Part shown: positions 33,410-63,814 of the stretch, one piece after another
Numbering within the stretch: the stretch's first letter is position 1
Layout of the letters: each line of letters begins with the position of its first letter
Sequence record: PZ296772.1
Origin: a phage
Reading direction: 5' to 3' (one strand)
Length of the DNA: 64,000 nt
Made by a program: the position numbers and the translations under genes
Notes under the pieces: generated by a model
Seen by the model: the letters and a program-made list of their open reading frames with translations, nothing else
Database searches by the model: none
Told to the model about the DNA's origin: nothing

Positions 33410-34045
33410 ATGAAAACTACTCCTATTACTATCGCTATTGACGCAATCATAAAACAAGCTTCTTCTTTGGCCGCTATGGCCAAAGTAATTAGTCAAAACC
33501 CTGCTCGTTATAATGCTATTCTAGAAACTCTTCGACGCCCGGGACTTAGTAATTATGAAAGCCGAGTAATTATTACAGGTGTTGGTAAGAATGCTAATAT
33601 TGCAACTAAAGCTTCTGAGACATTTGCTTCACTCGGTATCCCGAGTATGTACTTGAACACCGGGCACTATTCTCACGGTGATGCAGGATTTATTGCGCCT
33701 AATGATGTATTAGTTCACATCAGTCGTTCTGGTAAGACTGAAGAAATGATAGGTGTTGCTAAACATCTTCGTATGATTCGTCCTCAGGTTAAACAGATTC
33801 TGTTACATTGTAACCCTGACATTCCACAAGAATACGAAGCTCTTTTTGATTATACGTTCTGTACCGGTATCGCGGTAGAAGTTGACGAGAACTCTTTAGC
33901 TCCGACAATGTCAACCACATTGTTGTTAGCGCTTATCGATACGTTCGCTATCAACCTTTCGTCTGAGCGTGGATTTACCTCTAATGACTTCCTTAAGTTC
34001 CACCCTGGTGGTGCACTAGGTGCCATGTTACGAGGCGAACAATGA
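33410..34045 (+). CDS. SIS-domain sugar-phosphate isomerase (arabinose-5-phosphate isomerase-like, no CBS domains)
   Basis: SIS motifs GVGKNANIATKA, HISRSGKTEE and C-terminal FHPGGALG typical of KdsD/GutQ/KpsF isomerases. Confidence 0.65.
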   Translation: MKTTPITIAIDAIIKQASSLAAMAKVISQNPARYNAILETLRRPGLSNYESRVIITGVGKNANIATKASETFASLGIPSMYLNTGHYSHGDAGFIAPNDVLVHISRSGKTEEMIGVAKHLRMIRPQVKQILLHCNPDIPQEYEALFDYTFCTGIAVEVDENSLAPTMSTTLLLALIDTFAINLSSERGFTSNDFLKFHPGGALGAMLRGEQ

Positions 34046-34226: not shown

Positions 34227-35912
34227 ATGAAAAAAGCTGTTATTCTTGGTGCTGGACTGGCAACTCGTTTGTATCCAATAACGCATCATATTCCAAAAGT
34301 TCTTGTGAACTATAAACAAGACACTATTCTGAGCAATTTGTATACAATTTATTCTGACCTTGGCGCAGATGAAATTATTGTAGTAGTTCATTCAAAATTT
34401 GCTGAAACTGTTCGAGCTTATTGTGAGCAAGAAGGGTTCAATGTGACTATTCGTACAGTTGATGAAGCGTATGGTTCTGCTTATGCTCTTGCTAAATTAC
34501 ACAAAGATTTAGACGGCCATAATGTAATTGTTAACTGGTGTGATATTATTCCTGATTTTGGTTCATGGTCTTGGAATGTTAACGCAATCTATGTTAAGGG
34601 TGACGAATGTCGGTATAATTTCGACGGTGAAAATATCACTAACGTAGGTTCAACAGGTGGTAATGTTGTAGGAATTTATCAGTTCAAAGACTGGGAATTC
34701 TATATGGGTTCTACTGATGAGGAAATTCATGAATACTGCAAAGGACGCGATTTCGTAGAATTCCTTTACAGCGGCGCATTCAATAAATCAGAGCTTATGA
34801 ATCTAATTGATTTAGGTGATATGCCTAAACTTGAAAAAGCTCATGAAGTTCGTGAACTTAATCGTAGTTTTAATGCAGTTGAAATTGGTGAAGAAACTGT
34901 AACTAAATTCGCATTAACCGAACAGGGTCGAGCTCTTCAGAAAGATGAGATTTCATGGTATCTTAAAGTGAAATCAGATTCAGTTCCTCAGTTAGTTTCT
35001 GTAAATGAAAATAACTTTGAAATGGAACGTATTAAAGGTAAGCCGGCATTTGAATATATTAAATCCAAATCAAGTCTTGCTCGTCCACAAATTGTTGATG
35101 CAATTTTAGATGCACTAAAATTCAGCACAGACACGTATTTTGTAAGTCCTGAAACTGTTCGTCGTGATTTCACTAAAGAATTCTATACGAAAGTTATTGA
35201 TCGTTGTGAAAGCATTCAGCCATTGATTGATTCATTTGGTAAAATCACACACGTGAACTACACTAAGATTGGACGTCTGAAGCCAATGCTGAAACAAGCT
35301 TTAGAACACCTTATTCGTTATCATAACCGTTCTCAGGGACAGTACTCTGTTATTCATGGTGACCCGAACTTCAGTAATACTATGATTACTGATAACGGCG
35401 AAGTCAAGTTTATCGACCCTCGTGGATATTTTGGCGAAACCAAGATTTACGGGCCAAAATTGTATGATGAAGCTAAAGTGCTTTATGCTGTTTCAGGTTA
35501 TGATGAATTCAATGCTAATCCGACCTGGGGACAGTTTACTATTGATGAAACAACTTGTAATGTGACTATTAACATCAATCCATTAATTTACAAATATGGA
35601 AAGATGAGTTCGTTTAACGAGTATCATCATTTGGCTGTAGCAATTATCTGGATTGCATTAGGTGGTTATTTCAAGAATAATCCACTTAAAGCGGTAGCCG
35701 CATATTATAAAGGTATGGAACTTCTGACTAAGCAATTACGTAACATGGGCCGTGTACTTCAAGATGGCTCTATTAGTTATGACGTAGCAGAACCTGTAAC
35801 GGCTACTCTGATTACAAAAAATCCTGGTAAATGGGTACTAACTGATAAAGAAACTGGTGTTTCCTATCGTCCAATCGGTGGCGATATCACTCATCAATGG
35901 GAACGAATCTAA
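34227..35912 (+). CDS. bifunctional sugar-1-phosphate nucleotidyltransferase / APH-type anomeric sugar kinase
   Basis: N-terminus ILGAGLATRLYPIT (NTP-transferase G-x-G-T-R-L); C-terminus kinase catalytic loop VIHGDPNFSNTMI and metal-binding FIDPRG. Confidence 0.6.
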   Translation: MKKAVILGAGLATRLYPITHHIPKVLVNYKQDTILSNLYTIYSDLGADEIIVVVHSKFAETVRAYCEQEGFNVTIRTVDEAYGSAYALAKLHKDLDGHNVIVNWCDIIPDFGSWSWNVNAIYVKGDECRYNFDGENITNVGSTGGNVVGIYQFKDWEFYMGSTDEEIHEYCKGRDFVEFLYSGAFNKSELMNLIDLGDMPKLEKAHEVRELNRSFNAVEIGEETVTKFALTEQGRALQKDEISWYLKVKSDSVPQLVSVNENNFEMERIKGKPAFEYIKSKSSLARPQIVDAILDALKFSTDTYFVSPETVRRDFTKEFYTKVIDRCESIQPLIDSFGKITHVNYTKIGRLKPMLKQALEHLIRYHNRSQGQYSVIHGDPNFSNTMITDNGEVKFIDPRGYFGETKIYGPKLYDEAKVLYAVSGYDEFNANPTWGQFTIDETTCNVTININPLIYKYGKMSSFNEYHHLAVAIIWIALGGYFKNNPLKAVAAYYKGMELLTKQLRNMGRVLQDGSISYDVAEPVTATLITKNPGKWVLTDKETGVSYRPIGGDITHQWERI

Positions 35913-36298
35913 TGCATCGTGTAGAAAACATGCTTAATCTTTGTTTTGATGTCGACGATTGTATAACAGAGTGGAATAACAATCGTGATTACGTGAACTT
36001 CAAGCCAGACGTCGAAATGGTGACTGCCATTAATGCCCTGTATGATGCAGGGCATACCATAACGCTTTACACTGCTCGTGGTATGAAGTCAGTAGGTCCT
36101 GGACGTATAGCAATTGACATTCTACCGAGTCTGATTCAGAACTTGGAAAACATTGGTTTGAAGTACCATAATTTGCTAACACATAAACCAGTATATGATT
36201 GGATTATCGACGACAAAGCTATGCGTCCTGACGAATTCAAAGCTCTTATGAATAAAGGCGAATTCGAAACATTTAAATCATATAAACCGAACCTATAA
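35912..36298 (+). CDS. HAD-like phosphatase (small)
   Basis: Start at ATG overlapping upstream stop; motif I CFDVDDCIT (DxDx-). Confidence 0.4.
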   Translation: MHRVENMLNLCFDVDDCITEWNNNRDYVNFKPDVEMVTAINALYDAGHTITLYTARGMKSVGPGRIAIDILPSLIQNLENIGLKYHNLLTHKPVYDWIIDDKAMRPDEFKALMNKGEFETFKSYKPNL

Positions 36299-36346: not shown

Positions 36347-37516
36347 ATGCAAAAAATGAATACTTTTAAAATCGGAACGAATTTTGATTTAGCTCTTCTT
36401 GATAAAATCGTAGAGCTCAATAAAACTTATCCTAATAGCTTGATAAACGAAGTGTACGGCTCTACAAGAGAAATGGCTTTTGTAGCAGCCAGACCTGATT
36501 TTAGGCTTCCTGACGTTGACAAAAAGATGTTAGAAGATTACGTTAAACGTTGTAACGAATTAGGTATTTGCTTTAACTATACACTCAACACGATAAATCC
36601 TGGTTCAAAAAGAGAACTAGTTGAGTGGAAGAAGAAAGCTATTCAGGATTATGTTCAGTATCTTTGGTCAATAGGCGTATGGCGTATTACTATCGCTAAC
36701 CCTGTTGTTATGGAAATTGTTCGTGAAGTAAATAAAGACATTGAGATTGAAGTTTCAACAATTCTACATGTTGATGCTGTAACTCAAATCAAATACTTGC
36801 ATGACCAATATAATATCAAAAAGGTCTGCTGTGGAATTCATAAGAACCGTTCAGTTTCTTTCCTGAAGCGTGCAGCAGAGTTTTGCAATAAGAACAATAT
36901 AATATTTGAAGTTCTTGTAAATGAGTTCTGTTCTAATGCTGGTAAAGGGTATACAACACATTGTAGCTATCGTGACTCTTGCTATATTTTCCATAGTACT
37001 GATGTTACAGCTGATGATGCTAAATCCTTAAATGGATATCCAATGCAGCACTGTATTAAAGCTCGTGATACAGACCCATTTAACTGGTTGAGAACTCGTT
37101 TTGTTCGTCCTCAAGATTTGAAACTTTATAATGATATTGGTATCACTCAATTCAAAGTTTCAGGACGTACAGGTAGCACAGACTACATTTTGAAAGTTCT
37201 TGAAGCATACGCTTCTGAAAAGTTTGAAGGTAATTTGTTAGAACTGTGGAAGCCTTTAGAGACTATTTTCACTCTTGAAAACGAAACCGAGTTTTCACAT
37301 ACAGTAAATATTGAAACCTCTTTGTTAGATGGCTTTTTAGAAAAAAGGTGGTTCAGACATCCAGATTTCGATTGTGCTAATGAAATCTGTGGGACGACGT
37401 GTACATATTGTGAAAGATATTATAAACGTCAGTTATCTAAAAACGGGTTAGCAGAAAACTCTATATCTATTATTGATATAACTAACTCTGATGACGCTTT
37501 GAGGTACCCGGAATGA
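36347..37516 (+). CDS. peptidase-U32-family-like protein (putative Fe-S enzyme)
   Basis: Central region resembles recalled U32 pattern (FNYTLNTI...GVWRITIANPVVMEIVRE...IEVSTILHV...NRSVSFLKRAAE); multiple Cys (CSNAGKG..HCSYRDSC, CANEICGTTCTYC). Confidence 0.35.
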   Translation: MQKMNTFKIGTNFDLALLDKIVELNKTYPNSLINEVYGSTREMAFVAARPDFRLPDVDKKMLEDYVKRCNELGICFNYTLNTINPGSKRELVEWKKKAIQDYVQYLWSIGVWRITIANPVVMEIVREVNKDIEIEVSTILHVDAVTQIKYLHDQYNIKKVCCGIHKNRSVSFLKRAAEFCNKNNIIFEVLVNEFCSNAGKGYTTHCSYRDSCYIFHSTDVTADDAKSLNGYPMQHCIKARDTDPFNWLRTRFVRPQDLKLYNDIGITQFKVSGRTGSTDYILKVLEAYASEKFEGNLLELWKPLETIFTLENETEFSHTVNIETSLLDGFLEKRWFRHPDFDCANEICGTTCTYCERYYKRQLSKNGLAENSISIIDITNSDDALRYPE

Positions 37517-37752
37517 TTTCTAGAAAAACTTTTAATCACCAACTTAATGAAGAGATTTTGACTACGAAACTGAACACTAACGAACAAATTCTTAAAAAGG
37601 CCCTTATGGGCCTGTTTGAAACCAAAGCGGCTAAAGTGATTAAAGAACCTGTTCAATTGGAATACTACGCTGATGCATTTCTTCACAGTGTTCTTGGAAG
37701 TATCGATGCTGAAGCTTTACGGTATACCAACATTGCCAAGAAATTCAAATAA
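37513..37752 (+). CDS. hypothetical protein
   Basis: 79 aa, coupled start. Confidence 0.4.
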   Translation: MISRKTFNHQLNEEILTTKLNTNEQILKKALMGLFETKAAKVIKEPVQLEYYADAFLHSVLGSIDAEALRYTNIAKKFK

Positions 37753-37794: not shown

Positions 37795-38511
37795 ATGGGA
37801 AAACATAACACAATGAAATATATCAAAGCCGCAGATTTTCAAGCCGCATTTAAAGCAGTCAATCGTGAAATTTTAGAAAACCCAGAATTCGTAACTGATT
37901 CTCGTATTGGACGTTGTAATGAAATTGGGTCTATGACAGTAGTTGTTGACACTCCATCATCATTCAAAATGACCGACCCACGTATTAACCGCATCTCTTA
38001 TGAATATGCTGAAGACTTCTGGAAGTTTATGATTTCTGGTGGTACTGACGCAGAAGAAGCGTTTAAGGCATACCCTAATGTCGCTAAATTTATTTCTAAA
38101 CCCAAATCAGACGCTTTGCCGGCGAACTTCAACACTTTCTATGGTCCTCGCATTGCGGCCCAATTACCAGCTCTTCTAAAAGAACTTAAAGAGAAGCCTA
38201 ACTCTCGAAGAGTTGTGTTCCAAATTCTAGAAAGTTCTGATCAGGCTTTGCTTGATTCGGACGAAACGCTTGAATATCCATGTACTGACTCAGTGACTTA
38301 TTATATTCGTGATGGTAAGCTTTATACCCACTGTCATATGCGTTCTCAGAACTGTGCTGTTGTTATGCAGTTGGATTTTTATCTCCAAGGAAAATTACTT
38401 CATTATATCGCTAACGAATGCGGTGTAGAAGTAGGTGATTATACTCATACCATGGTAAGTGCCCATGTGTTTGAACGTGATTTTGATTATGTTAAAGGAT
38501 TCCTTGACTAA
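37795..38511 (+). CDS. 42: dCMP hydroxymethylase (divergent)
   Basis: Thymidylate-synthase fold: nucleophile YPCTD, then HMRSQNCAVVMQLDF with Asp where TS has the PFNIAS Asn; T4 gene 42 position. Confidence 0.65.
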   Translation: MGKHNTMKYIKAADFQAAFKAVNREILENPEFVTDSRIGRCNEIGSMTVVVDTPSSFKMTDPRINRISYEYAEDFWKFMISGGTDAEEAFKAYPNVAKFISKPKSDALPANFNTFYGPRIAAQLPALLKELKEKPNSRRVVFQILESSDQALLDSDETLEYPCTDSVTYYIRDGKLYTHCHMRSQNCAVVMQLDFYLQGKLLHYIANECGVEVGDYTHTMVSAHVFERDFDYVKGFLD

Positions 38512-39410
38512 TGGCTATTTTCCGCGTACCTATCTTGAGTATGCGGTCTTATGAAACTGGACAGTATGCTATCCTTAAGGATGGCAACTTCCAACTTCAT
38601 TTGCACCGTGCTAATCCAGGTGATGTGATTACATATCCACGTAATGCATCTGATATTAAAGAATGTGAACGTCTTTTCCCGGAATTTAAGTTTGTTCCAT
38701 TATGGTATAAAGATAACGCGTATAACACTCGTAAATATTTCTGGTCTGAAAATGAATTTGTGGTTGATTCATTAATTGCTTATTATGATTGTGATTTTCT
38801 AATCACAGATATCACTGGATATGATGGCGCTTTTGACGTAGAATTCAATTTCAATATCACTGCAGACCCTAATAAACCACGTTTTTATATTGATGAATTC
38901 TTAAAAACCGACATGTTGTCTGTTAATCGTTCAATCCAAACAACTGTGTTGAATAAACGTCAAAAGGAAGTGCTGGTTAACGCTGGTGCCGATGGTAATA
39001 AGATTATCGTAACGCAGAAAGTTATACGTCCTTCCGTCATGCAGCGTCTTGTAGGTGATTTGGCTCCTATTCATCTAGATGGTATTTTTCATCCATTTCG
39101 AATTAGTGACCCATGCTATCGTTTTGAACAAGTTGTTGAATGCGCAATTCAATTAGGTCAACCGCTTTATATAACTGATCCAAATAATAGTTTCGACAGA
39201 AATAAGTATCCTGAAGAAGCGCTGATTCGAATTTTTAATCCAACTAAAACTGAGTACTATCAAATTCTTAAAGGACGTCCGAAGATTCAATATTTCGAAA
39301 ATCCTGAAGAAGTATTCCATCCAGGTCTTGGTGAGTTCATCTACTTTAATGCTTTAATTTCTTCACCGTATAATATACCTAAATACGAAGATGTCGTAAT
39401 CGAGGAATAA
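38511..39410 (+). CDS. hypothetical protein occupying the T4 beta-glucosyltransferase position
   Basis: 299 aa, coupled to the gp42 stop; no recognisable similarity to recalled T4 beta-gt. Confidence 0.45.
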   Translation: MAIFRVPILSMRSYETGQYAILKDGNFQLHLHRANPGDVITYPRNASDIKECERLFPEFKFVPLWYKDNAYNTRKYFWSENEFVVDSLIAYYDCDFLITDITGYDGAFDVEFNFNITADPNKPRFYIDEFLKTDMLSVNRSIQTTVLNKRQKEVLVNAGADGNKIIVTQKVIRPSVMQRLVGDLAPIHLDGIFHPFRISDPCYRFEQVVECAIQLGQPLYITDPNNSFDRNKYPEEALIRIFNPTKTEYYQILKGRPKIQYFENPEEVFHPGLGEFIYFNALISSPYNIPKYEDVVIEE

Positions 39411-39411
39411 A

Positions 39412-39960
39412 ATGGCTAAAATTATTTTAGTAGATGGCCCGGATAATGCCGGTAAAACAACTTTCATTAATGACGTAATGGAAATTAGTGAAAGATATGT
39501 AAAGATTGATTTCCCTAAACGAACAATTGATGGACGTTTCGATGTTAAGTCTCGAAATGAAGTTGGCTGTTTCGAAACGATGTTGAATTATTTAGACCCT
39601 ACTAAGATTTATCTGTTAGACCGTGGATATATTAGTAACTGGGTTTATGGACGTATTCGACAAGATGCGGACTCAGTTCTTGACGTTTATGAACAGGATT
39701 ATGTTCGTCTTTGCCAAAACCATGATGTGTTCACAATTATTTTAACACGTAACGAAATGACTGAAAGTTTTGAAGACGACCTTATTACTTTGTCTTCATT
39801 AGGTTTTAATACAGTCATTTCATATTTTGAAGAGTTTGCAATTCATAACAAAATCCAAACGTATCAATTACTTAATCATGATGGTGCTAACAAAGTTATA
39901 GGATTTAATGCAAGCGAACGTAATAATTTGATTACAGAAATCATCAAATGGGCTCGTTAA
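39412..39960 (+). CDS. P-loop nucleoside/nucleotide kinase-like protein
   Basis: Walker A VDGPDNAGKTT; LLDRGYISNWVYG resembling the dNK/TMPK DR(Y) motif. Confidence 0.5.
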   Translation: MAKIILVDGPDNAGKTTFINDVMEISERYVKIDFPKRTIDGRFDVKSRNEVGCFETMLNYLDPTKIYLLDRGYISNWVYGRIRQDADSVLDVYEQDYVRLCQNHDVFTIILTRNEMTESFEDDLITLSSLGFNTVISYFEEFAIHNKIQTYQLLNHDGANKVIGFNASERNNLITEIIKWAR

Positions 39961-57251: not shown

Positions 57252-57661
57252 TGGCTAATAAATTCCGCGTTAACTCATGGTACCAATTTATAGATAAACG
57301 TGCCCAAGAAGAGTTTATTAAAGACCACACTGATAATGGGATTTATGCACGACGTCTTGGCATGGAACCATTTAAAGTATTAGATGTTGACCATCTCGGA
57401 CGTCCTACTAAAATTTTAACATCTACTGGCACGGTTGGATACGCAACAGGCGGTGATATCCTTGATGAAAACTTTATCTGGCTCTCCACGAATGAAGCAG
57501 AGTTCTTTGACGAAGTTGAAAATCCATATCAAGCGTCCGAAGAGCAAGATTCTGGTGAACTTGGCGAATTGTCTGAATTTCCTGTGATGACGATTACTAT
57601 CGAAAATAATGACCAGGCATGGTCTTTGTATCAAATGTTGAAAGCACATTTTAAGGAATAA
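57251..57661 (+). CDS. hypothetical protein
   Basis: Start moved to internal ATG overlapping upstream stop; 136 aa. Confidence 0.4.
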
Positions 57662-57663
57662 TA

Positions 57664-57843
57664 ATGCCATTATACGACTATAAATGCCAATCTAAAGATT
57701 GTGGCCATGAATATGAAAAAATTAAAAGAATTTCTGAACGAGAAAACGATGTTTGCCCTGAATGTCATCGTTTGTCTACTCGTCGGGTTTCTGCTCCTAA
57801 ACATGTGAACGGTGGTTTTTACGACTTACTTAAGAAGGGTTAA
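57664..57843 (+). CDS. zinc-ribbon small protein (FmdB-like), below ORF-track threshold
   Basis: 59-aa ORF MPLYDYKCQSKDCGHEYEKIKRISERENDVCPECHRL... with CxxxxC...CPxC; fills the gap between 57661 and 57846. Confidence 0.45.
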   Translation: MPLYDYKCQSKDCGHEYEKIKRISERENDVCPECHRLSTRRVSAPKHVNGGFYDLLKKG

Positions 57844-57845
57844 TT

Positions 57846-58271
57846 ATGGCTTTTAAAGGTTTTGAAGTTGGTAAGAAATATCGTATTATCAAAGGACAGG
57901 AAGATAATTTCTTGAGAATTCTTAATACGACTGGTAAACGTCTTAATACTAATCTGCATACTACTTTATTGACCAAAGATTTTATTGTGGAAGAGATGAT
58001 TGGTTACGGCGTTTCGGTTATTGCCGTAGAAGCCGTAGGCGATTATGGGCGAACTATTCATAGTATGCAAGGTGATATTCTGCTTTATGGTGCAGAATTT
58101 AAATTCTTTGAAGAAGTTCCGGAACCAGATACAGCTGTCGATTTCAAAAAAGGCTCTATAGAATTTGTTGATGGTTCGGTGATCGTATCAGGCGATGTGG
58201 TCATTACAGTTAAAAGTGAACAAGGGCGTTTGGCTGCAATTGATACACTTCAGAAAATTAAATTTAAATAA
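57846..58271 (+). CDS. hypothetical protein
   Basis: 141 aa, followed by a terminator. Confidence 0.45.
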   Translation: MAFKGFEVGKKYRIIKGQEDNFLRILNTTGKRLNTNLHTTLLTKDFIVEEMIGYGVSVIAVEAVGDYGRTIHSMQGDILLYGAEFKFFEEVPEPDTAVDFKKGSIEFVDGSVIVSGDVVITVKSEQGRLAAIDTLQKIKFK

Positions 58272-58288
58272 GGGCTTCGGCCCTTTTT
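58271..58288 (+). terminator. rho-independent terminator
   Basis: agggc-TTCG-gccct followed by T5. Confidence 0.6.
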
Positions 58289-58334
58289 GCTTTAGATTTC
58301 GGATGATAGAATACCTTCATAACGAGGAGACAAC

Positions 58335-60152
58335 ATGATTAAAAATGAAATTAAGGTATTGTCAGATGTAGAACATATTAAGAAACGTAGTGGTATGTAT
58401 ATTGGTTCTTCGGCCAAAGAAGCACATGAGCGTTTTTTGTTTGGTAAATATCAACAAGTTGAATATGTTCCTGGTCTGGTTAAATTAATCGATGAGATTA
58501 TTGACAACTCGGTCGATGAAGCTATTCGTACATCATTTAAGTTTGCAAATAAAATTGATGTGCAAATTAAAAATAATCAAGTTTCGGTGGAAGATAACGG
58601 ACGTGGTATTCCTCAAGGTTTAGTTACAGACCAAACAGGTGAACAAATTCCTGGGCCTGTAGCAGCCTGGACTATTCCAAAGGCCGGTGGTAACTTTGGT
58701 GATGACTCTGAACGCAAGACTGGTGGTATGAACGGTGTCGGGAGTAGTTTAACTAATATCTTCTCTACGTTGTTTACAGGCATTACGTCAGATGGCGAAA
58801 ATGAAATCACTGTTAACTGTTCAAACGGAATGGAAAACAAATCATGGTCTTCTAAGAAATCTAAAGGTAAAGGCACTAAAGTAATCTTCACTCCTGATTT
58901 CTCTTCATTTGAAGAGCATAATTTATCTCAAATTTATTTAGATATTACTTTAGACCGACTTCAAACATTAGCAGTCGTTTATCCTGATATCAAGTTCACA
59001 TTTAATGGTAAAAAGGTTGATGGTAATTTTAAACGATTTGCTAAACAATTTGGTGAAGATAACATCATTCAAGAAAATGATAAAGTCTCTATAGCATTCA
59101 CAACATCACCAGATGGCTTCCGTCATTTAACTTATGTGAATAACATCCATACTAAAAATGGCGGACATCATGTTGAATGTGTAATGGATGATATCTGCGA
59201 ACATCTTTTGCCGGGTATTAAAAAGAAATATAAAGGTATTGAAGTCACTAAAGCTCGTGTTAAAGAATGCCTCACAATGTTGATGTTTATTAGAGACATG
59301 AGCAACGTGCGTTTTGATTCTCAGACTAAAGAACGTTTAACGTCGACGTATGGTGATATTCGTAATCATATCCAATTAGATGCTAAGAAAATTGCTCAGG
59401 CACTTCTTAAAAACGAAGCCTTGATTATGCCTATTGTTGAAGCAGCATTAGCTCGTAAATTGGCGGCAGAAAAGGCTGCAGAAACTAAAGCAGCTAAAAA
59501 GGCAACTAAAGCTAAAGTTCATAAGCATATTAAAGCTAACCAATGTGGTAAAGATGCAGATACGACATTGTTCTTAACAGAAGGTGATTCGGCAATTGGT
59601 TATCTCATTGATGTTCGTGACCGTGAACTACACGGTGGATTCCCATTACGTGGTAAGGTGATGAATAGCTGGGGTATGTCATATGCTGATATGATGAAGA
59701 ACAAAGAGCTCTTTGATATCTGTGCTATCACAGGTCTTATTCTTGGTGAAAAGGCAGAGAATACGAACTATCGTAATATTGCAATTATGACTGATGCCGA
59801 TCATGACGGTCTTGGAAGTATTTATCCGGCTTTGCTTGCTTTCTTTAGTAATTGGCCTGAATTGTTTGAACAAGGACGTATTCGCTTTGTTAAAACGCCT
59901 GTAATTATTGCACAAATTGGCAAAACTCAAAAATGGTTTTATACTGTAGCTGAGTATGAAGAAGTTAAAGATACACTGCCTAAGCATAGTATTCGATACA
60001 TCAAGGGATTAGGCTCCCTTGAAAAGTCAGAATATCGTGAAATGATTCAGAACCCAGTGTACGACGTAGTTAAACTTCCTGAAAATTGGAAAGAACTATT
60101 TGAAATGCTCATGGGTGATGATTCAGAACTTCGTAAAGAATGGATGTCCTAA
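58335..60152 (+). CDS. 39: DNA topoisomerase II large subunit (GyrB-like), single fused gp39+gp60-equivalent ORF
   Basis: 605 aa; GHKL ATPase motif LIDEIIDNSVDEA, GGMNGVGSS; Toprim LTEGDSA and DADHDG in one frame. Confidence 0.85.
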   Translation: MIKNEIKVLSDVEHIKKRSGMYIGSSAKEAHERFLFGKYQQVEYVPGLVKLIDEIIDNSVDEAIRTSFKFANKIDVQIKNNQVSVEDNGRGIPQGLVTDQTGEQIPGPVAAWTIPKAGGNFGDDSERKTGGMNGVGSSLTNIFSTLFTGITSDGENEITVNCSNGMENKSWSSKKSKGKGTKVIFTPDFSSFEEHNLSQIYLDITLDRLQTLAVVYPDIKFTFNGKKVDGNFKRFAKQFGEDNIIQENDKVSIAFTTSPDGFRHLTYVNNIHTKNGGHHVECVMDDICEHLLPGIKKKYKGIEVTKARVKECLTMLMFIRDMSNVRFDSQTKERLTSTYGDIRNHIQLDAKKIAQALLKNEALIMPIVEAALARKLAAEKAAETKAAKKATKAKVHKHIKANQCGKDADTTLFLTEGDSAIGYLIDVRDRELHGGFPLRGKVMNSWGMSYADMMKNKELFDICAITGLILGEKAENTNYRNIAIMTDADHDGLGSIYPALLAFFSNWPELFEQGRIRFVKTPVIIAQIGKTQKWFYTVAEYEEVKDTLPKHSIRYIKGLGSLEKSEYREMIQNPVYDVVKLPENWKELFEMLMGDDSELRKEWMS

Positions 60153-60168
60153 GCTCCTTCGGGAGCTT
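60151..60168 (+). terminator. terminator-like hairpin
   Basis: aagctcc-TTCG-ggagctt followed by cattttaatttt. Confidence 0.5.
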
Positions 60169-60194
60169 CATTTTAATTTTAATAAGGCTTAATT

Positions 60195-61295
60195 ATGAAA
60201 GTTATGTTTATCCCATCTCGTGCAGTCCCATTTAATCCTGACCGTGTACAAGGTGGACTTGAAGCAGTACATTTAAATGTGTTGAAATATCTTGTGTCCA
60301 TCGGTGCTGATATTGATTATATCGGCTTTGATAATGACACGTTTGGTGACTGGAAAGTTACACACCATCCTGTTGGTCATCTGACTAAATTCAGTCTAGG
60401 TATGAGTTATACTATGGCTCGTAAGATTGTTGAACTAGCCGGCATCCATGAATACGATTTTGTTGTTACTATGGAACCGACTAAACTAACCGTCCAAGCA
60501 ATTAAAGACGCAGGTCTCTCTAAAGTTCATAAGAATTTTATGGCTACGCCATTTGAACCGGTGTCTCGTGGTATTGTTCAAATTTGGGATCAGACTATCC
60601 AGATTCACAAGAACGGTGGGAAGAGCTATGCTCCTACTAAAGCCTTCCGTGAATTTGAACGTAAATATTGTCATATGACTTCAGCTCTTACTGACAAAAT
60701 TGATTATGACTACTGGCGTGAAAATCCATTATTTGAACCTGATGACTACCCGGTTATTTGTTTGAATGAAAAACCTGAAGTTCTTCCGGCAACTGATTTG
60801 ATTATTAGTGCTCAACGTTATGACACTAAGATGCGTCGCACTGATGTTGCTCTTGAAGCAATTAAAGCACTAGGCGAAAATGGTATTGGTTATTGTCCAA
60901 GCAAATGGGCACCACCAGCTAAATATCCTGTTATTATTGATGCTCCACACAGTGAAATCATGGAACGTCTTAAAACAGCTAAAGCACTTATTAATACATG
61001 TCCTGACACAGGTACGGTAGAGAATAGTTCTATTGAAGCCATCTCTAAAGGTGTCCCTGTAATCCAGTTAGTTTTTAAGGATTATCCTCATGCGACATTC
61101 GAATACGACCCAGATACTGTGCGTGTAGAAATTGATTCCTCTACTCCTAAGAAAGAAGTAGTTGCGCTTTACACAAAAGCTGTATTAGAATTCACTGACA
61201 CATACAAAGCTCGAGTTAAACGTGCTGAAGCAGTATGGAAGAAGTATAATCGAGATGCAGTTGTTGCGATGTGGGATAAAATCTTCACAGCGTAA
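60195..61295 (+). CDS. GT-B-fold glycosyltransferase (candidate DNA hmC glycosyl/arabinosyl transferase)
   Basis: 366 aa; N-terminal MKVMFIPSRAVPFNPDRVQGGLEAVHLNV and C-terminal ENSSIEAISKGVPVIQ resembling the GT4/GT-B donor-binding motif; between 39 and rIIA. Confidence 0.55.
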   Translation: MKVMFIPSRAVPFNPDRVQGGLEAVHLNVLKYLVSIGADIDYIGFDNDTFGDWKVTHHPVGHLTKFSLGMSYTMARKIVELAGIHEYDFVVTMEPTKLTVQAIKDAGLSKVHKNFMATPFEPVSRGIVQIWDQTIQIHKNGGKSYAPTKAFREFERKYCHMTSALTDKIDYDYWRENPLFEPDDYPVICLNEKPEVLPATDLIISAQRYDTKMRRTDVALEAIKALGENGIGYCPSKWAPPAKYPVIIDAPHSEIMERLKTAKALINTCPDTGTVENSSIEAISKGVPVIQLVFKDYPHATFEYDPDTVRVEIDSSTPKKEVVALYTKAVLEFTDTYKARVKRAEAVWKKYNRDAVVAMWDKIFTA

Positions 61296-61387
61296 ATCCT
61301 GAATAGCCTGAGGCACTATTACACATAAGATGATAAATTATATGGTCTTTAGTAATAGTGCCCTAGGAATCTACTGAAGAGAATATT

Positions 61388-61588
61388 ATGAGAACATATA
61401 ACGTGGACTTGGAACTTTTTGATAAAGCGGTGCTCCGGGAATTCCGGCTTATCCAAAGATTTTTTGATATCGAGTCAGCAGAGTCATTTAAAGAACGCTT
61501 TAAAGAAATTCGATATAAAATACAAACCGATACAGCTACTAAAGAAGAACTTCTTGAAGTAGCAGAAATTTTTAAACGTAACTTGTGA
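61388..61588 (+). CDS. hypothetical protein (rIIA-proximal small ORF)
   Basis: 66 aa immediately upstream of rIIA. Confidence 0.4.
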   Translation: MRTYNVDLELFDKAVLREFRLIQRFFDIESAESFKERFKEIRYKIQTDTATKEELLEVAEIFKRNL

Positions 61589-61600
61589 TGAGAGAAAAAT

Positions 61601-63814
61601 ATGATTATTGAAACAGCTAAAGAAACGATTATTGGTTCAGGCGGTAAGAGCACAGCATTCACTATTCAAGGCAATAGCAAAGTTTATAAGATTTTGTCTA
61701 ATGACCTTTATACAAACAAAGAATTGGCTTGTGTACGTGAATTAATCACAAACTGTATCGATGGACAAATTCTTAATGGTTGCACTGATAAGTTTATTGT
61801 TCAGGCTCCAGGTCGTTTAGACCCACGTTTTGTAGTTCGAGACTTTGGTCCTGGCATGAGCGATTTCACCATTAGAGGTAATGACGAAGAGCCAGGAATC
61901 TATAACTCATATTTTGCTTCAACTAAAACATCGAGTAACGATTTCATTGGCGGATTCGGACTCGGCTCTAAAGCTCCACTAGCATATACCGATACGTTTA
62001 ACCTTACGTCTTATCACAACGGTGAAGTTCGTGGTTACGTAATCTACCAAGATGACAGTGGTCCACAGATTAAGCCGACCTTTGTAGATAAGATGGGCCC
62101 TGATGACCGTACGGGTGTAGAAGTAGTTGTGCCGGTTAACCCAGAAGATTTTGAAAAGTTCGCATCTGAAATTGCATATGTTATGCGTCCTCTAGGTGAT
62201 ATTGCAGAAGTTCGCGGTGTTAAAGATATTAAATACTTTCCTGAATTTGACGATGTATATTTGGCTAAGGAAGCTCCATGGGGTGAACGTGGTAATATCA
62301 TGGCTGTTTATGGTGGTATTGTATATCCAATCGGAAGTGTTATTAAAGAACAAACATGGATGATGACGCGATGCACTACAGCTTATATTAAATTCCCTAT
62401 GGGTGAACTAGATGTAGCCCCGTCTCGTGAAGCATTGTCATTTGATAAACGTACAGTAGCAAATATCCATAAACGCGTTGCAGAAATTGATGCAAAATTA
62501 TTTGCTGAAGATTCTAAGAAATGGATTGATTGTGAATATCCACGTCATGTATTCCGTGAAATCGATTCTCTTGGTTACTCTGCTCGTAAATACATGGAAA
62601 AAGCTGGTTCTAATATTGAATCACTGAAATATTCTAAAGAACAGCTAACTTATTCTGAGTTGTACAAACGTTTTAAAATGGGACCCGAATGGTGCAACCT
62701 TGGTGTTGTATATGATATCGTTTCAGACCCACGACTTCGTCGTATTCGTGAAAGCGGAAGCTCGTCTGCAACTATTTCAATTAATAGCCTGCTAGGTATT
62801 AGTCGTAAGCATATTGATATTGTTATTGACGATGTGAAAGGCCGCGTACCAATGATGCGTGCTCTGAACGATGCTTTGACTTCCACAGATGCATCAACAC
62901 TCGTTGATAAGGTTCCTTCCGGATATGGTAGTAGCGTATTATTCATTAACCCGGAAGATGAAGTTGCAATGAAACTTCTGGAACGATTAAAGGTTATTTT
63001 CGCTGGTGATAGCCTTAAATTTTATAAGACCTCTGAAATTCTTGCATTAGTTAAACCGTGGATTGAAGTTAAAGAACGTTCATCGCAGCCTCGTCCTAAA
63101 TCCCCAAGTGCTCATCGGTTCTTTAAGAACGAAAAAGATGTTTGGGTATCAGAAGACCTTTTTATTCCGGCCAGTAAAGCTGATGAGATTCAAGGTTATG
63201 TTGTAATTCGTAATCGTTCTAATGCTGAATGTCTTGATGCAGATAAAGGTTGGTTGAACTATGATTCAAATTTCTTGACCCGTATTGCTGATTTGTCAGG
63301 TATTAAAGAGTTCACTGTAGTTCGCCCACAGATTGCTAAGAAAGTTCGTAAACTTGGTGAAGTAGAATGTTTGTTCGAAAAATCAATTAATGACTATGTT
63401 ATGCTAATTGATAAAGTGGATTATGATGAGTATGTATCACCAAGTCGTAGAGCACAGCCTTATTTGAATCATATTACTCGTAATGAAGAGCTTAATTTCC
63501 TTAGTAAATATTTTAGCTCTAAGAACAAAGAAATCAGTAAAGACTTTGCAAAACTCTCAACAGTAAATAATCGCTGGGGATGGAATCGATTCGCAGGTGC
63601 TGATAACAAAGACCTGAACAGGAAGTTAGAATTGTGTGCTAAAATTTTCGATAAGCTTAAAGATAATGCTTACGATAATGATGATAAAATGGTTATTGAA
63701 TTCGAAACCAATTATCATATTGTGTCAGAATACATGGGACGACGTGGTACTCTTTCCAAAGAACAGGTCGCTCAAATCGTTAAATTCATGAAGGCCGTGG
63801 AAGCGGCCAAATAA
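61601..63814 (+). CDS. rIIA: rIIA protein
   Basis: 737 aa; N-terminus MIIETAKETIIGSGGKS...KVYKILSNDLYTNKELACVRELITNCID matches recalled T4 rIIA. Confidence 0.8.
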   Translation: MIIETAKETIIGSGGKSTAFTIQGNSKVYKILSNDLYTNKELACVRELITNCIDGQILNGCTDKFIVQAPGRLDPRFVVRDFGPGMSDFTIRGNDEEPGIYNSYFASTKTSSNDFIGGFGLGSKAPLAYTDTFNLTSYHNGEVRGYVIYQDDSGPQIKPTFVDKMGPDDRTGVEVVVPVNPEDFEKFASEIAYVMRPLGDIAEVRGVKDIKYFPEFDDVYLAKEAPWGERGNIMAVYGGIVYPIGSVIKEQTWMMTRCTTAYIKFPMGELDVAPSREALSFDKRTVANIHKRVAEIDAKLFAEDSKKWIDCEYPRHVFREIDSLGYSARKYMEKAGSNIESLKYSKEQLTYSELYKRFKMGPEWCNLGVVYDIVSDPRLRRIRESGSSSATISINSLLGISRKHIDIVIDDVKGRVPMMRALNDALTSTDASTLVDKVPSGYGSSVLFINPEDEVAMKLLERLKVIFAGDSLKFYKTSEILALVKPWIEVKERSSQPRPKSPSAHRFFKNEKDVWVSEDLFIPASKADEIQGYVVIRNRSNAECLDADKGWLNYDSNFLTRIADLSGIKEFTVVRPQIAKKVRKLGEVECLFEKSINDYVMLIDKVDYDEYVSPSRRAQPYLNHITRNEELNFLSKYFSSKNKEISKDFAKLSTVNNRWGWNRFAGADNKDLNRKLELCAKIFDKLKDNAYDNDDKMVIEFETNYHIVSEYMGRRGTLSKEQVAQIVKFMKAVEAAK

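Follow-up and report, generated by a model that had tools for sequence, protein, structure and literature searches.

We analyzed a stretch of 64,000 nucleotides of phage DNA (sequence record PZ296772.1; hereafter the window), focusing on an ATG-started open reading frame (ORF) of 366 amino acids (aa) at 60195..61295 on the plus strand. The initial annotation had described a 366-aa ORF between the topoisomerase gene and rIIA; the ORF lies exactly there, with the same synteny as in the phages RB69 and Bas47. We propose that it probably encodes a chain-extending arabinofuranosyltransferase, an enzyme that places a second arabinose on arabinosylated 5-hydroxycytosine (5hoC) in phage DNA. The ORF is a genuine gene and not a chance reading frame, because it matches a phage protein family over its full length, has homologs in 212 phage records, and has a solved structure at about 98% identity. 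Its base composition is unremarkable, and an AAGG ribosome-binding site (60185..60188) can be read in the sequence 8 nt 5' of the start. Over the surrounding 6 kb, identity is 99.8% to Escherichia phage PTK and 99.7% to AlbertHofmann (BASEL collection Bas47), both members of the genus Mosigvirus (the RB69 group); the window is an RB69-like Mosigvirus. The GenBank record of Bas47 labels the counterpart of the gene a 'putative hmC-arabinosyltransferase'.

The protein is 97.5% identical to ORF003c of RB69 (gp3, NP_861693, 366 aa) and about 98% identical to the 'phage HY126 glycosyltransferase' in the Protein Data Bank (PDB), deposited in the apo form (9IQZ) and with uridine diphosphate (UDP; 9IR0) and released on 2025-07-16. 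Six substitutions separate it from the PDB sequence (E176A, P181A, D182E, I231V, S316F, and K338E), and nothing in the differences from RB69 or HY126 suggests a change in function. Among the profiles searched, the sole family match was PHROG 8302 ('unknown function'; residues 1-366, E=8e-221). No Pfam model matched even at E<=10, including Glycos_transf_1, Glyco_trans_4, and the T4 glucosyltransferase models, nor did any NCBIfam model, so these standard profiles cannot demonstrate that the protein is a glycosyltransferase. Structure was more informative. An AlphaFold2 model built from a 6-sequence alignment was poor (predicted local distance difference test, pLDDT, 57) and served only as a handle for Foldseek; we did not read catalytic geometry from it. 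This search returned 244 PDB matches at E<=1e-3, and the best 50 were all of GT-B fold with probability 1.00, mostly glycosyltransferases such as PimA, BshA, WaaG, and tetrahydrobiopterin glucosyltransferase; the model superposed on 9ir0_A ('glycosyltransferase with UDP') with a template-modeling (TM) score of 0.70. A GT-B fold, as the initial annotation had suggested, and a UDP-sugar donor are therefore supported, mainly by the 98%-identical crystal entry and less by our own low-confidence model.

In sequence, the ORF003c family is remarkably isolated. A profile of six members, run against 1.84 billion representative proteins, gave 11 matches, ten of which were family members or fragments. 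The only outsider, P0135, was marginal (E=2e-4), with a sub-threshold Glycos_transf_1 match. No other PDB sequence matched the profile, and the same search, used to look for a bacterial ancestor or donor lineage, identified none. Comparison of 13 family members leaves 48 invariant positions, among them G20-G21, E94, R125, R208, D210, R214, E276, E281, H299, E303, and D305; the motif ENSSIEAISKGVPVIQ spans residues 276-291. The two invariant glutamates within it, E276 and E281, are spaced E-x4-E and not as EX7E, the canonical glutamate motif of GT4 enzymes. By analogy with GT4-type enzymes, the UDP-sugar site is probably built from the GG loop, these glutamates, and R208 together with R214.

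What the enzyme would act on is indicated by the DNA chemistry of close relatives. Thomas et al. (2018; PMC6024577) detected arabinose in the DNA of RB69 by high-performance anion-exchange chromatography (HPAEC) and matrix-assisted laser desorption/ionization (MALDI), interpreted it as arabinosyl-hydroxymethylcytosine (ara-hmC), and, using HHpred and Phyre2, nominated ORF003c as the RB69 arabinosyltransferase, a proposal that the initial annotation had noted correctly. Using tandem mass spectrometry (MS/MS) and nuclear magnetic resonance (NMR), Lee et al. (2026, NAR; PMC13326640) instead identified beta-D-Araf-(1-3)-alpha-D-Araf-5-hydroxy-2'-deoxycytidine, where Araf is arabinofuranose, along with a mono-arabinosyl form. 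The base fragment had an m/z of 128.05, whereas hmC would give 142.06, and NMR placed the arabinose directly on C5 through oxygen, an ether link to 5hoC (PMC13326640). Arabinosyl-5hoC was confirmed independently in Mosigvirus NP, with a mono- to di-arabinosyl ratio of 1:4, and the ara-hmC assignment was called erroneous (PMC13390438); the DNA of Bas46 and Bas47 is doubly arabinosylated (PMC12923530).

The window itself is predicted to follow suit. In RB69 the nucleotide 5-hydroxy-dCMP (5hodCMP) is made by the ThyA homolog gp48 (PMC13326640). The window's ThyA homolog is identical to the tested gp48 at 237 of 238 positions and about 99% identical to PDB entries 9IQC, 9IR2, and 9IQU. Compared with canonical thymidylate synthase it has RSQN in place of RS(A/C)D, that is D169N, the signature of 5hodCMP synthases, and an Asp at the N177 position (N177->D), which confers cytosine specificity. 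Because of this near-identity and these two residues, we predict that the window phage makes 5hoC and not 5-hydroxymethylcytosine. Thus, the hmC acceptor assumed in the initial annotation does not hold.

A sugar-nucleotide module lies between the genes for DNA polymerase and UvsX. It extends from 33.4 to ~39.96 kb, and not only to 37.5 kb as first described, and encodes, in order, an arabinose-5-phosphate isomerase, a kinase/uridylyltransferase, a phosphatase, a peptidase-U32-family (U32) protein, a 79-aa ORF, the ThyA homolog, a 299-aa ORF, and a nucleotide kinase (Table 1). For the HY126 counterparts, PMC13326640 cites kinase and nucleotidyltransferase activities for AfhE and conversion of Araf-1,5-bisphosphate to Araf-1-phosphate for AfhF.

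The 366-aa protein had been taken as the only glycosyltransferase-like protein in the window and hence as the logical transferase for the module. Neither claim survives, as a GT-B fold is also seen in the 299-aa ORF (38511..39410), the start of which has one base in common with the ThyA-homolog stop codon. This fold is invisible at the sequence level, and similarity between the 299-aa and 366-aa proteins could not be detected by sequence. The values listed for the 299-aa ORF were 17.3 for sucrose-phosphate synthase, 16.6 for BshA, 15.9 for PimA, 14.2 for 9iqz_H, and 13.0 for T4 alpha-glucosyltransferase. It is the intact equivalent of RB69 gp46:47, a single ORF split by a sequencing error in the reference genome (PMC13326640). 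In the scheme of Lee et al., gp46:47 would carry out the first transfer and gp3 (ORF003c) would be 'beta-arabinosyltransferase 2' (PMC13326640). PMC13390438 gives the same two-enzyme model and likewise locates the gene between that for the topoisomerase II large subunit and rIIA.

Table 1. Coordinates of the 366-aa gene, its neighbors, and the sugar-nucleotide module in the window.
Feature	Coordinates	Strand	Basis or remark
366-aa ORF, putative second-sugar arabinofuranosyltransferase	60195..61295	+	ORF list of the window
Topoisomerase II large subunit, 605 aa	58335..60152		5' neighbor of the 366-aa ORF
Hairpin, 7-bp GC-rich stem, TTCG loop, then T-rich run	60151..60168	+	Terminator-like scan and sequence reading; overlaps the topoisomerase stop codon; the AAGG site comes after it
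66-aa ORF	61388..61588		3' of the 366-aa ORF, before rIIA
rIIA	61601..63814		3' of the 366-aa and 66-aa ORFs
SIS-domain arabinose-5-phosphate isomerase, first step to UDP-arabinofuranose	33410..34045	+	Pfam SIS; RB69 gp55 equivalent
Bifunctional sugar kinase and nucleotidyltransferase, makes UDP-Araf, the proposed donor	34227..35912	+	Pfam NTP_transferase, weak kinase matches; AfhE / RB69 gp52:53 equivalent
Small phosphatase	35897..36298	+	Position and annotation, no Pfam match; AfhF / RB69 gp51 equivalent
Peptidase-U32-family protein, 389 aa	36347..37516	+	Pfam, E=7e-11
79-aa ORF	37513..37752	+	Mosigvirus only
Thymidylate-synthase (ThyA) homolog, 5-hydroxy-dCMP synthase supplying the acceptor base	37795..38511	+	Pfam Thymidylat_synt; RB69 gp48 match
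Second GT-B, 299 aa, proposed first (base-proximal) arabinosyltransferase	38511..39410	+	Intact equivalent of RB69 gp46:47
Thymidylate-kinase-like nucleotide kinase	39412..39960	+	Pfam/annotation; RB69 gp45 equivalent; Table 1 of PMC13326640

We then compared how the two glycosyltransferase families are distributed. The ORF003c family occurs in 212 phage records, only in Mosigvirus (one copy, at least 95% identity) and in T4-like phages of Acinetobacter (two copies, about 42%); one of its records is labeled 'Tegunavirus'. Searching cultured phages with the divergent metagenomic members P0127, P0128, and P0130 recovered the same 211-212 records and no new host lineage. The family of the 299-aa protein (hereafter GT1) occurs in 349 phage records, spanning Mosigvirus and phages of Acinetobacter, Klebsiella, Enterobacter, Serratia, Yersinia, Proteus, Edwardsiella, and Shewanella. 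The GT1 gene of the window directly follows that of the ThyA homolog, and GT1 is universal in such modules; the taxa with the ORF003c family are a subset of those with GT1; about 135 further records have the module and GT1 without it. This distribution points to chain extension. A functional tie to the module, as the initial annotation had supposed, is borne out: the family is found only in genomes with the module, and in Acinetobacter phage DLP1 the homologs sit inside it, directly after GT1 and the kinase (L002:9001-11296), which links the family to the arabinose pathway by context. One candidate for a hidden homolog, Thanatos-2 TH2_068 (378 aa, in the slot of the Acinetobacter paralogs), proved to be a U32 protein.

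Copy number follows sugar number in the four lineages with described DNA chemistry. Serratia phage LC53 has one arabinose on cytosine and Shewanella phage Thanatos is described as mono-arabinosylated (PMC13326640); both have GT1 only and no ORF003c-family copy, and X20, a relative of LC53, likewise has a module with GT1 alone. The Mosigvirus phages RB69, NP, Bas46, and Bas47 have two arabinoses and one copy. Acinetobacter phage DLP3, tri-arabinosylated by NMR (PMC13326640), has two copies. Maestro, another Acinetobacter phage whose DNA is reported only as arabinosylated 5hodC, has two adjacent copies. A chain-extending enzyme would be expected to show such a dosage pattern, which is hard to reconcile with a base-proximal role.

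The two Acinetobacter paralogs, DLP3 gp77 and gp76 (DLP1_075 and DLP1_074 equivalents), align with the window protein over its full length at 42% and 40% identity (E=1e-108 and 8e-99) and share 58% identity with each other. In a neighbor-joining tree the gp77-like proteins form a clade that is sister to the gp76-like one, with the Mosigvirus protein branching outside both, so the window protein is not a one-to-one ortholog of gp77, the proposed second-sugar enzyme. From this topology, the Mosigvirus enzyme is co-orthologous to both proteins, and the tandem pair, given its sister clades and 58% identity, arose by duplication within the Acinetobacter lineage. Therefore, the two-protein requirement seen in DLP3 need not apply to the Mosigvirus enzyme. 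The gp76-like copy is altered at positions invariant in the six-sequence alignment (for example, VENSS to IEHGS and RGIVQ to RTLVS), changes that may be connected with gp76 and gp77 being active only together. In Escherichia phage LH01 (PP434429.1, 2523..3619) the ortholog aligns in two pieces labeled as two hypothetical proteins, a frameshift or a sequencing error; if the break is real, we would expect only mono-arabinosyl DNA there.

These observations fit a model in which the enzymes encoded at 33.4-36.3 kb would make UDP-D-arabinofuranose as the donor and the 299-aa GT-B would join the first Araf to the base through an alpha bond at O5. The soluble 366-aa GT-B would then add a second Araf (beta-1,3) to 5-O-(alpha-D-arabinofuranosyl)-5-hydroxycytosine in phage DNA, yielding the doubly arabinosylated base, the predominant form in the DNA of Mosigvirus. 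The thicker sugar coat would likely cause restriction enzymes and other DNA-targeting defenses to fail. We favor the chain-extending role because copies track extra sugars, with none in single-, one in di-, and two in tri-arabinose phages. The biochemistry of DLP3 is related: gp76 and gp77, only together, add a third arabinose (beta-1,5) to RB69 DNA from UDP-Araf, and no glycosyltransferase used plain 5hoC DNA as an acceptor (PMC13326640). The gene is probably dispensable for growth yet needed against particular defenses; deleting an arabinosyltransferase termed 'Aat' from Bas46, in a report that does not state which gene 'Aat' is, left the phage viable and sensitive to a plasmid-borne defense (PMC13216743).

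Several points weigh against assigning the second sugar to this enzyme. We found no direct assay of the Mosigvirus enzyme in the literature, with He et al. 2026 and Mahler et al. 2025 not covered. The DLP3 homologs need each other for activity, and the sugar they add is the third rather than the second (PMC13326640). The position of the Mosigvirus protein outside both Acinetobacter clades means that function cannot be transferred by one-to-one orthology. The first transfer, assigned to the 299-aa type of enzyme, was not reconstituted (PMC13326640). To these we add the low pLDDT of our model and the small number of lineages behind the dosage argument.

An alternative is that the 366-aa protein is the primary DNA arabinosyltransferase, adding the first arabinose to 5hoC and possibly the second as well, with the 299-aa GT-B in another or auxiliary role. 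This was the original proposal for ORF003c (PMC6024577) and is echoed by the GenBank labels in Bas46 and Bas47. The 366-aa type, and not the 299-aa type, has a deposited crystal structure with UDP, under codes close to those of the ThyA-homolog entries, which suggests a single deposition series whose authors treated the 366-aa type as the key transferase. Moreover, DLP3 gp79, which is of the 299-aa type, was inactive on 5hoC DNA in vitro (PMC13326640). However, a primary transferase should not be missing from singly arabinosylated LC53 and Thanatos and from the ~135 further records with the module and GT1, nor should it have just 11 relatives among the 1.84 billion proteins searched, far below the GT1 family, or a copy number that follows the count of extra sugars. 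We therefore regard a primary role as unlikely.

A second alternative, that the enzyme modifies a host or phage protein, lipid or lipopolysaccharide, or a nucleotide-level intermediate and is linked to the module only by coincidence, strikes us as very improbable. Its closest structural neighbors are GT-B enzymes acting on lipids and small molecules (PimA, BshA, and WaaG), the Mosigvirus gene is found beside rIIA, in a plastic region 20 kb away from the module, and whether the first arabinose is added on the mononucleotide or on DNA was left undecided in PMC13326640, but the Acinetobacter homologs sit inside the module, their purified products modify DNA (PMC13326640), and the family is confined to genomes with the module. 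Finally, an hmC-specific transferase like the T4 alpha- and beta-glucosyltransferases, yielding arabinosyl-hydroxymethylcytosine, agrees with the 2018 reading of the HPAEC/MALDI data (PMC6024577) and with the dCMP hydroxymethylase label on the neighboring ThyA homolog in many records, but is effectively already refuted by the base-fragment mass and O-linked C5 (PMC13326640), the independent result from NP (PMC13390438), the 99% identity of that ThyA homolog to a proven 5hodCMP maker, and the lack of any match to a T4 glucosyltransferase Pfam model at E<=10.

Returning to the chain-extending role, one can combine the observations further. A single Mosigvirus enzyme might act alone as an inverting beta-1,3-D-arabinofuranosyltransferase that recognizes the DNA-attached sugar; its action might be incomplete (mono:di of ~1:4) in a context-dependent manner; the resulting mixed mono- and di-arabinosyl epigenome might hedge against defenses that sense either form; and relocation to the rIIA side might have made it an exchangeable accessory counter-defense gene. 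Taken together, this combination is speculative and we give it a rather low chance of being right in full.

The essentials of the gene are already published or deposited, in the 2018 proposal, GenBank annotation, the 2025 PDB entries, and the chemistry and pathway papers of 2025-26. A fitting name would be DNA arabinosyl-5-hydroxycytosine arabinofuranosyltransferase (second sugar, putative), rather than 'hmC-arabinosyltransferase', and the unannotated 299-aa ORF should be recognized as the probable base-proximal transferase. The distribution also suggests a candidate genomic rule, that ORF003c-family copies plus one equal the arabinose number. The rule fits the four lineages and would be useful because the number of arabinoses on phage DNA alters which restriction, CRISPR, and glycosylase defenses a therapeutic T4-like phage escapes.

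Several features of the surrounding DNA deserve mention. GC-rich tetraloop hairpins resembling terminators are over-represented in 57600..61800, with 8 found versus 2.5 +/- 1.6 in shuffled sequence; among them are the one at the topoisomerase stop codon (60151..60168) and another with a TTCG loop (58270..58285) directly after the gene that precedes the topoisomerase gene. A perfect 11-bp inverted repeat with a 29-nt AT-rich loop, GGCACTATTAC ... GTAATAGTGCC (61312..61322 and 61352..61362), can be read in the 92 nt that separate the stop codon of the glycosyltransferase from the 66-aa ORF preceding rIIA. A scan for sigma-70 promoters showed no enrichment (11 found, 15 expected). By eye, we considered a T4 middle (MotA-type) promoter 5' of the 366-aa ORF and rejected it, as AGCTTCA is a near-match whose spacing to any -10 element is wrong.

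Within the module, the U32 protein raises a separate possibility. It has a weak, sub-threshold NCBIfam match to UbiU and was also found at L004:5796-7306, L007:4483-5894, and L005:9462-10598. It occurs in 222 phage records and retains at least 80% identity even in Thanatos-2, where GT1 has just 47%, but is absent from all Acinetobacter phages, 57 of which have GT1. Directly 3' of the U32 gene, Klebsiella phage KLB31 and Serratia phage X20 carry a genuine chorismate mutase gene (Pfam CM_2, scoring 38.5 and 44.6 bits where the cut-off is 27). Chorismate mutase makes prephenate, and the U32-family proteins TrhP, RlhA, and UbiU/V are prephenate-dependent hydroxylases that work independently of O2. 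By analogy, this suggests that the phage U32 protein could provide an O2-independent back-up route to 5hoC beside the O2-dependent ThyA homolog; the characterized 5hodCMP synthase takes its oxygen from O2 (PMC13326640). The facts would fit an anaerobic route that serves phages of facultative anaerobes and that phages infecting Acinetobacter, a strict aerobe, can do without. PMC13326640 makes no mention of U32, chorismate, or prephenate, and we found no link between U32 or chorismate mutase and 5hoC in the literature, with He et al. 2026 and Mahler et al. 2025 not covered. In the window the chorismate mutase slot is filled by the 79-aa ORF, which is restricted to Mosigvirus and is also represented by shorter database entries of ~50 aa. 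It is less conserved than its neighbors, with 81-96% identity, while the U32 protein reaches at least 99% in most records from Mosigvirus. We tried it as a diverged chorismate mutase, and neither BLASTP nor hhalign gave a signal.

Among known systems, the RB69 ORF003c and HY126 glycosyltransferases are practically the same protein as that of the window, and the RB69 gene too has the topoisomerase II large-subunit gene on one side and rIIA on the other. Membership in this family (PHROG 8302) is apparent from full-length similarity, from Mosigvirus synteny, and from the presence in the same genome of the module for 5hodCMP synthase, UDP-arabinose, and GT1. DLP3 gp76 and gp77 are members of the same family over their full length and extend an arabinose chain on DNA with UDP-Araf, but they are tandem paralogs within the module that act as a pair on the third sugar, whereas the Mosigvirus gene is single and relocated beside rIIA. 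The 299-aa type of GT-B (RB69 gp46:47, DLP3 gp79, and Thanatos TH1_063) is shorter than the 366-aa type and more widespread (349 versus 212 records).

Outside the family, the best structural neighbors are GT4-type GT-B enzymes (PimA, 2gej; BshA, 3mbo; WaaG, 8b62; and tetrahydrobiopterin glucosyltransferase, 9v0l). The N-terminal GG loop (G20-G21) and the C-terminal E..E/GxPV motif of the window protein resemble the GT4 donor site, but identity is only 11-15%, no Pfam profile places the protein in that family, and E276-x4-E281 replaces EX7E. GT4 enzymes of this kind are retaining, and the proposed beta product would need the other stereochemical outcome if the donor is a UDP-alpha-D-sugar.

The alpha- and beta-glucosyltransferases of T4 likewise have a GT-B fold and a UDP-sugar donor, and the T-even enzymes glycosylate a C5-substituted cytosine in phage DNA after replication. 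The window protein does not belong to either of these families by sequence, with no Pfam match at E<=10, although a remote relation of ORF003c to the T4 glucosyltransferases has been reported at the HHpred level (PMC6024577). It would also differ from the T4 enzymes in its sugar, D-arabinofuranose rather than glucose, and in its acceptor, a sugar on 5-hydroxycytosine rather than hmC. In function, the closest parallel to a chain-extending DNA glycosyltransferase is the beta-1,6-glucosyl-alpha-glucose transferase of T2 and T6.

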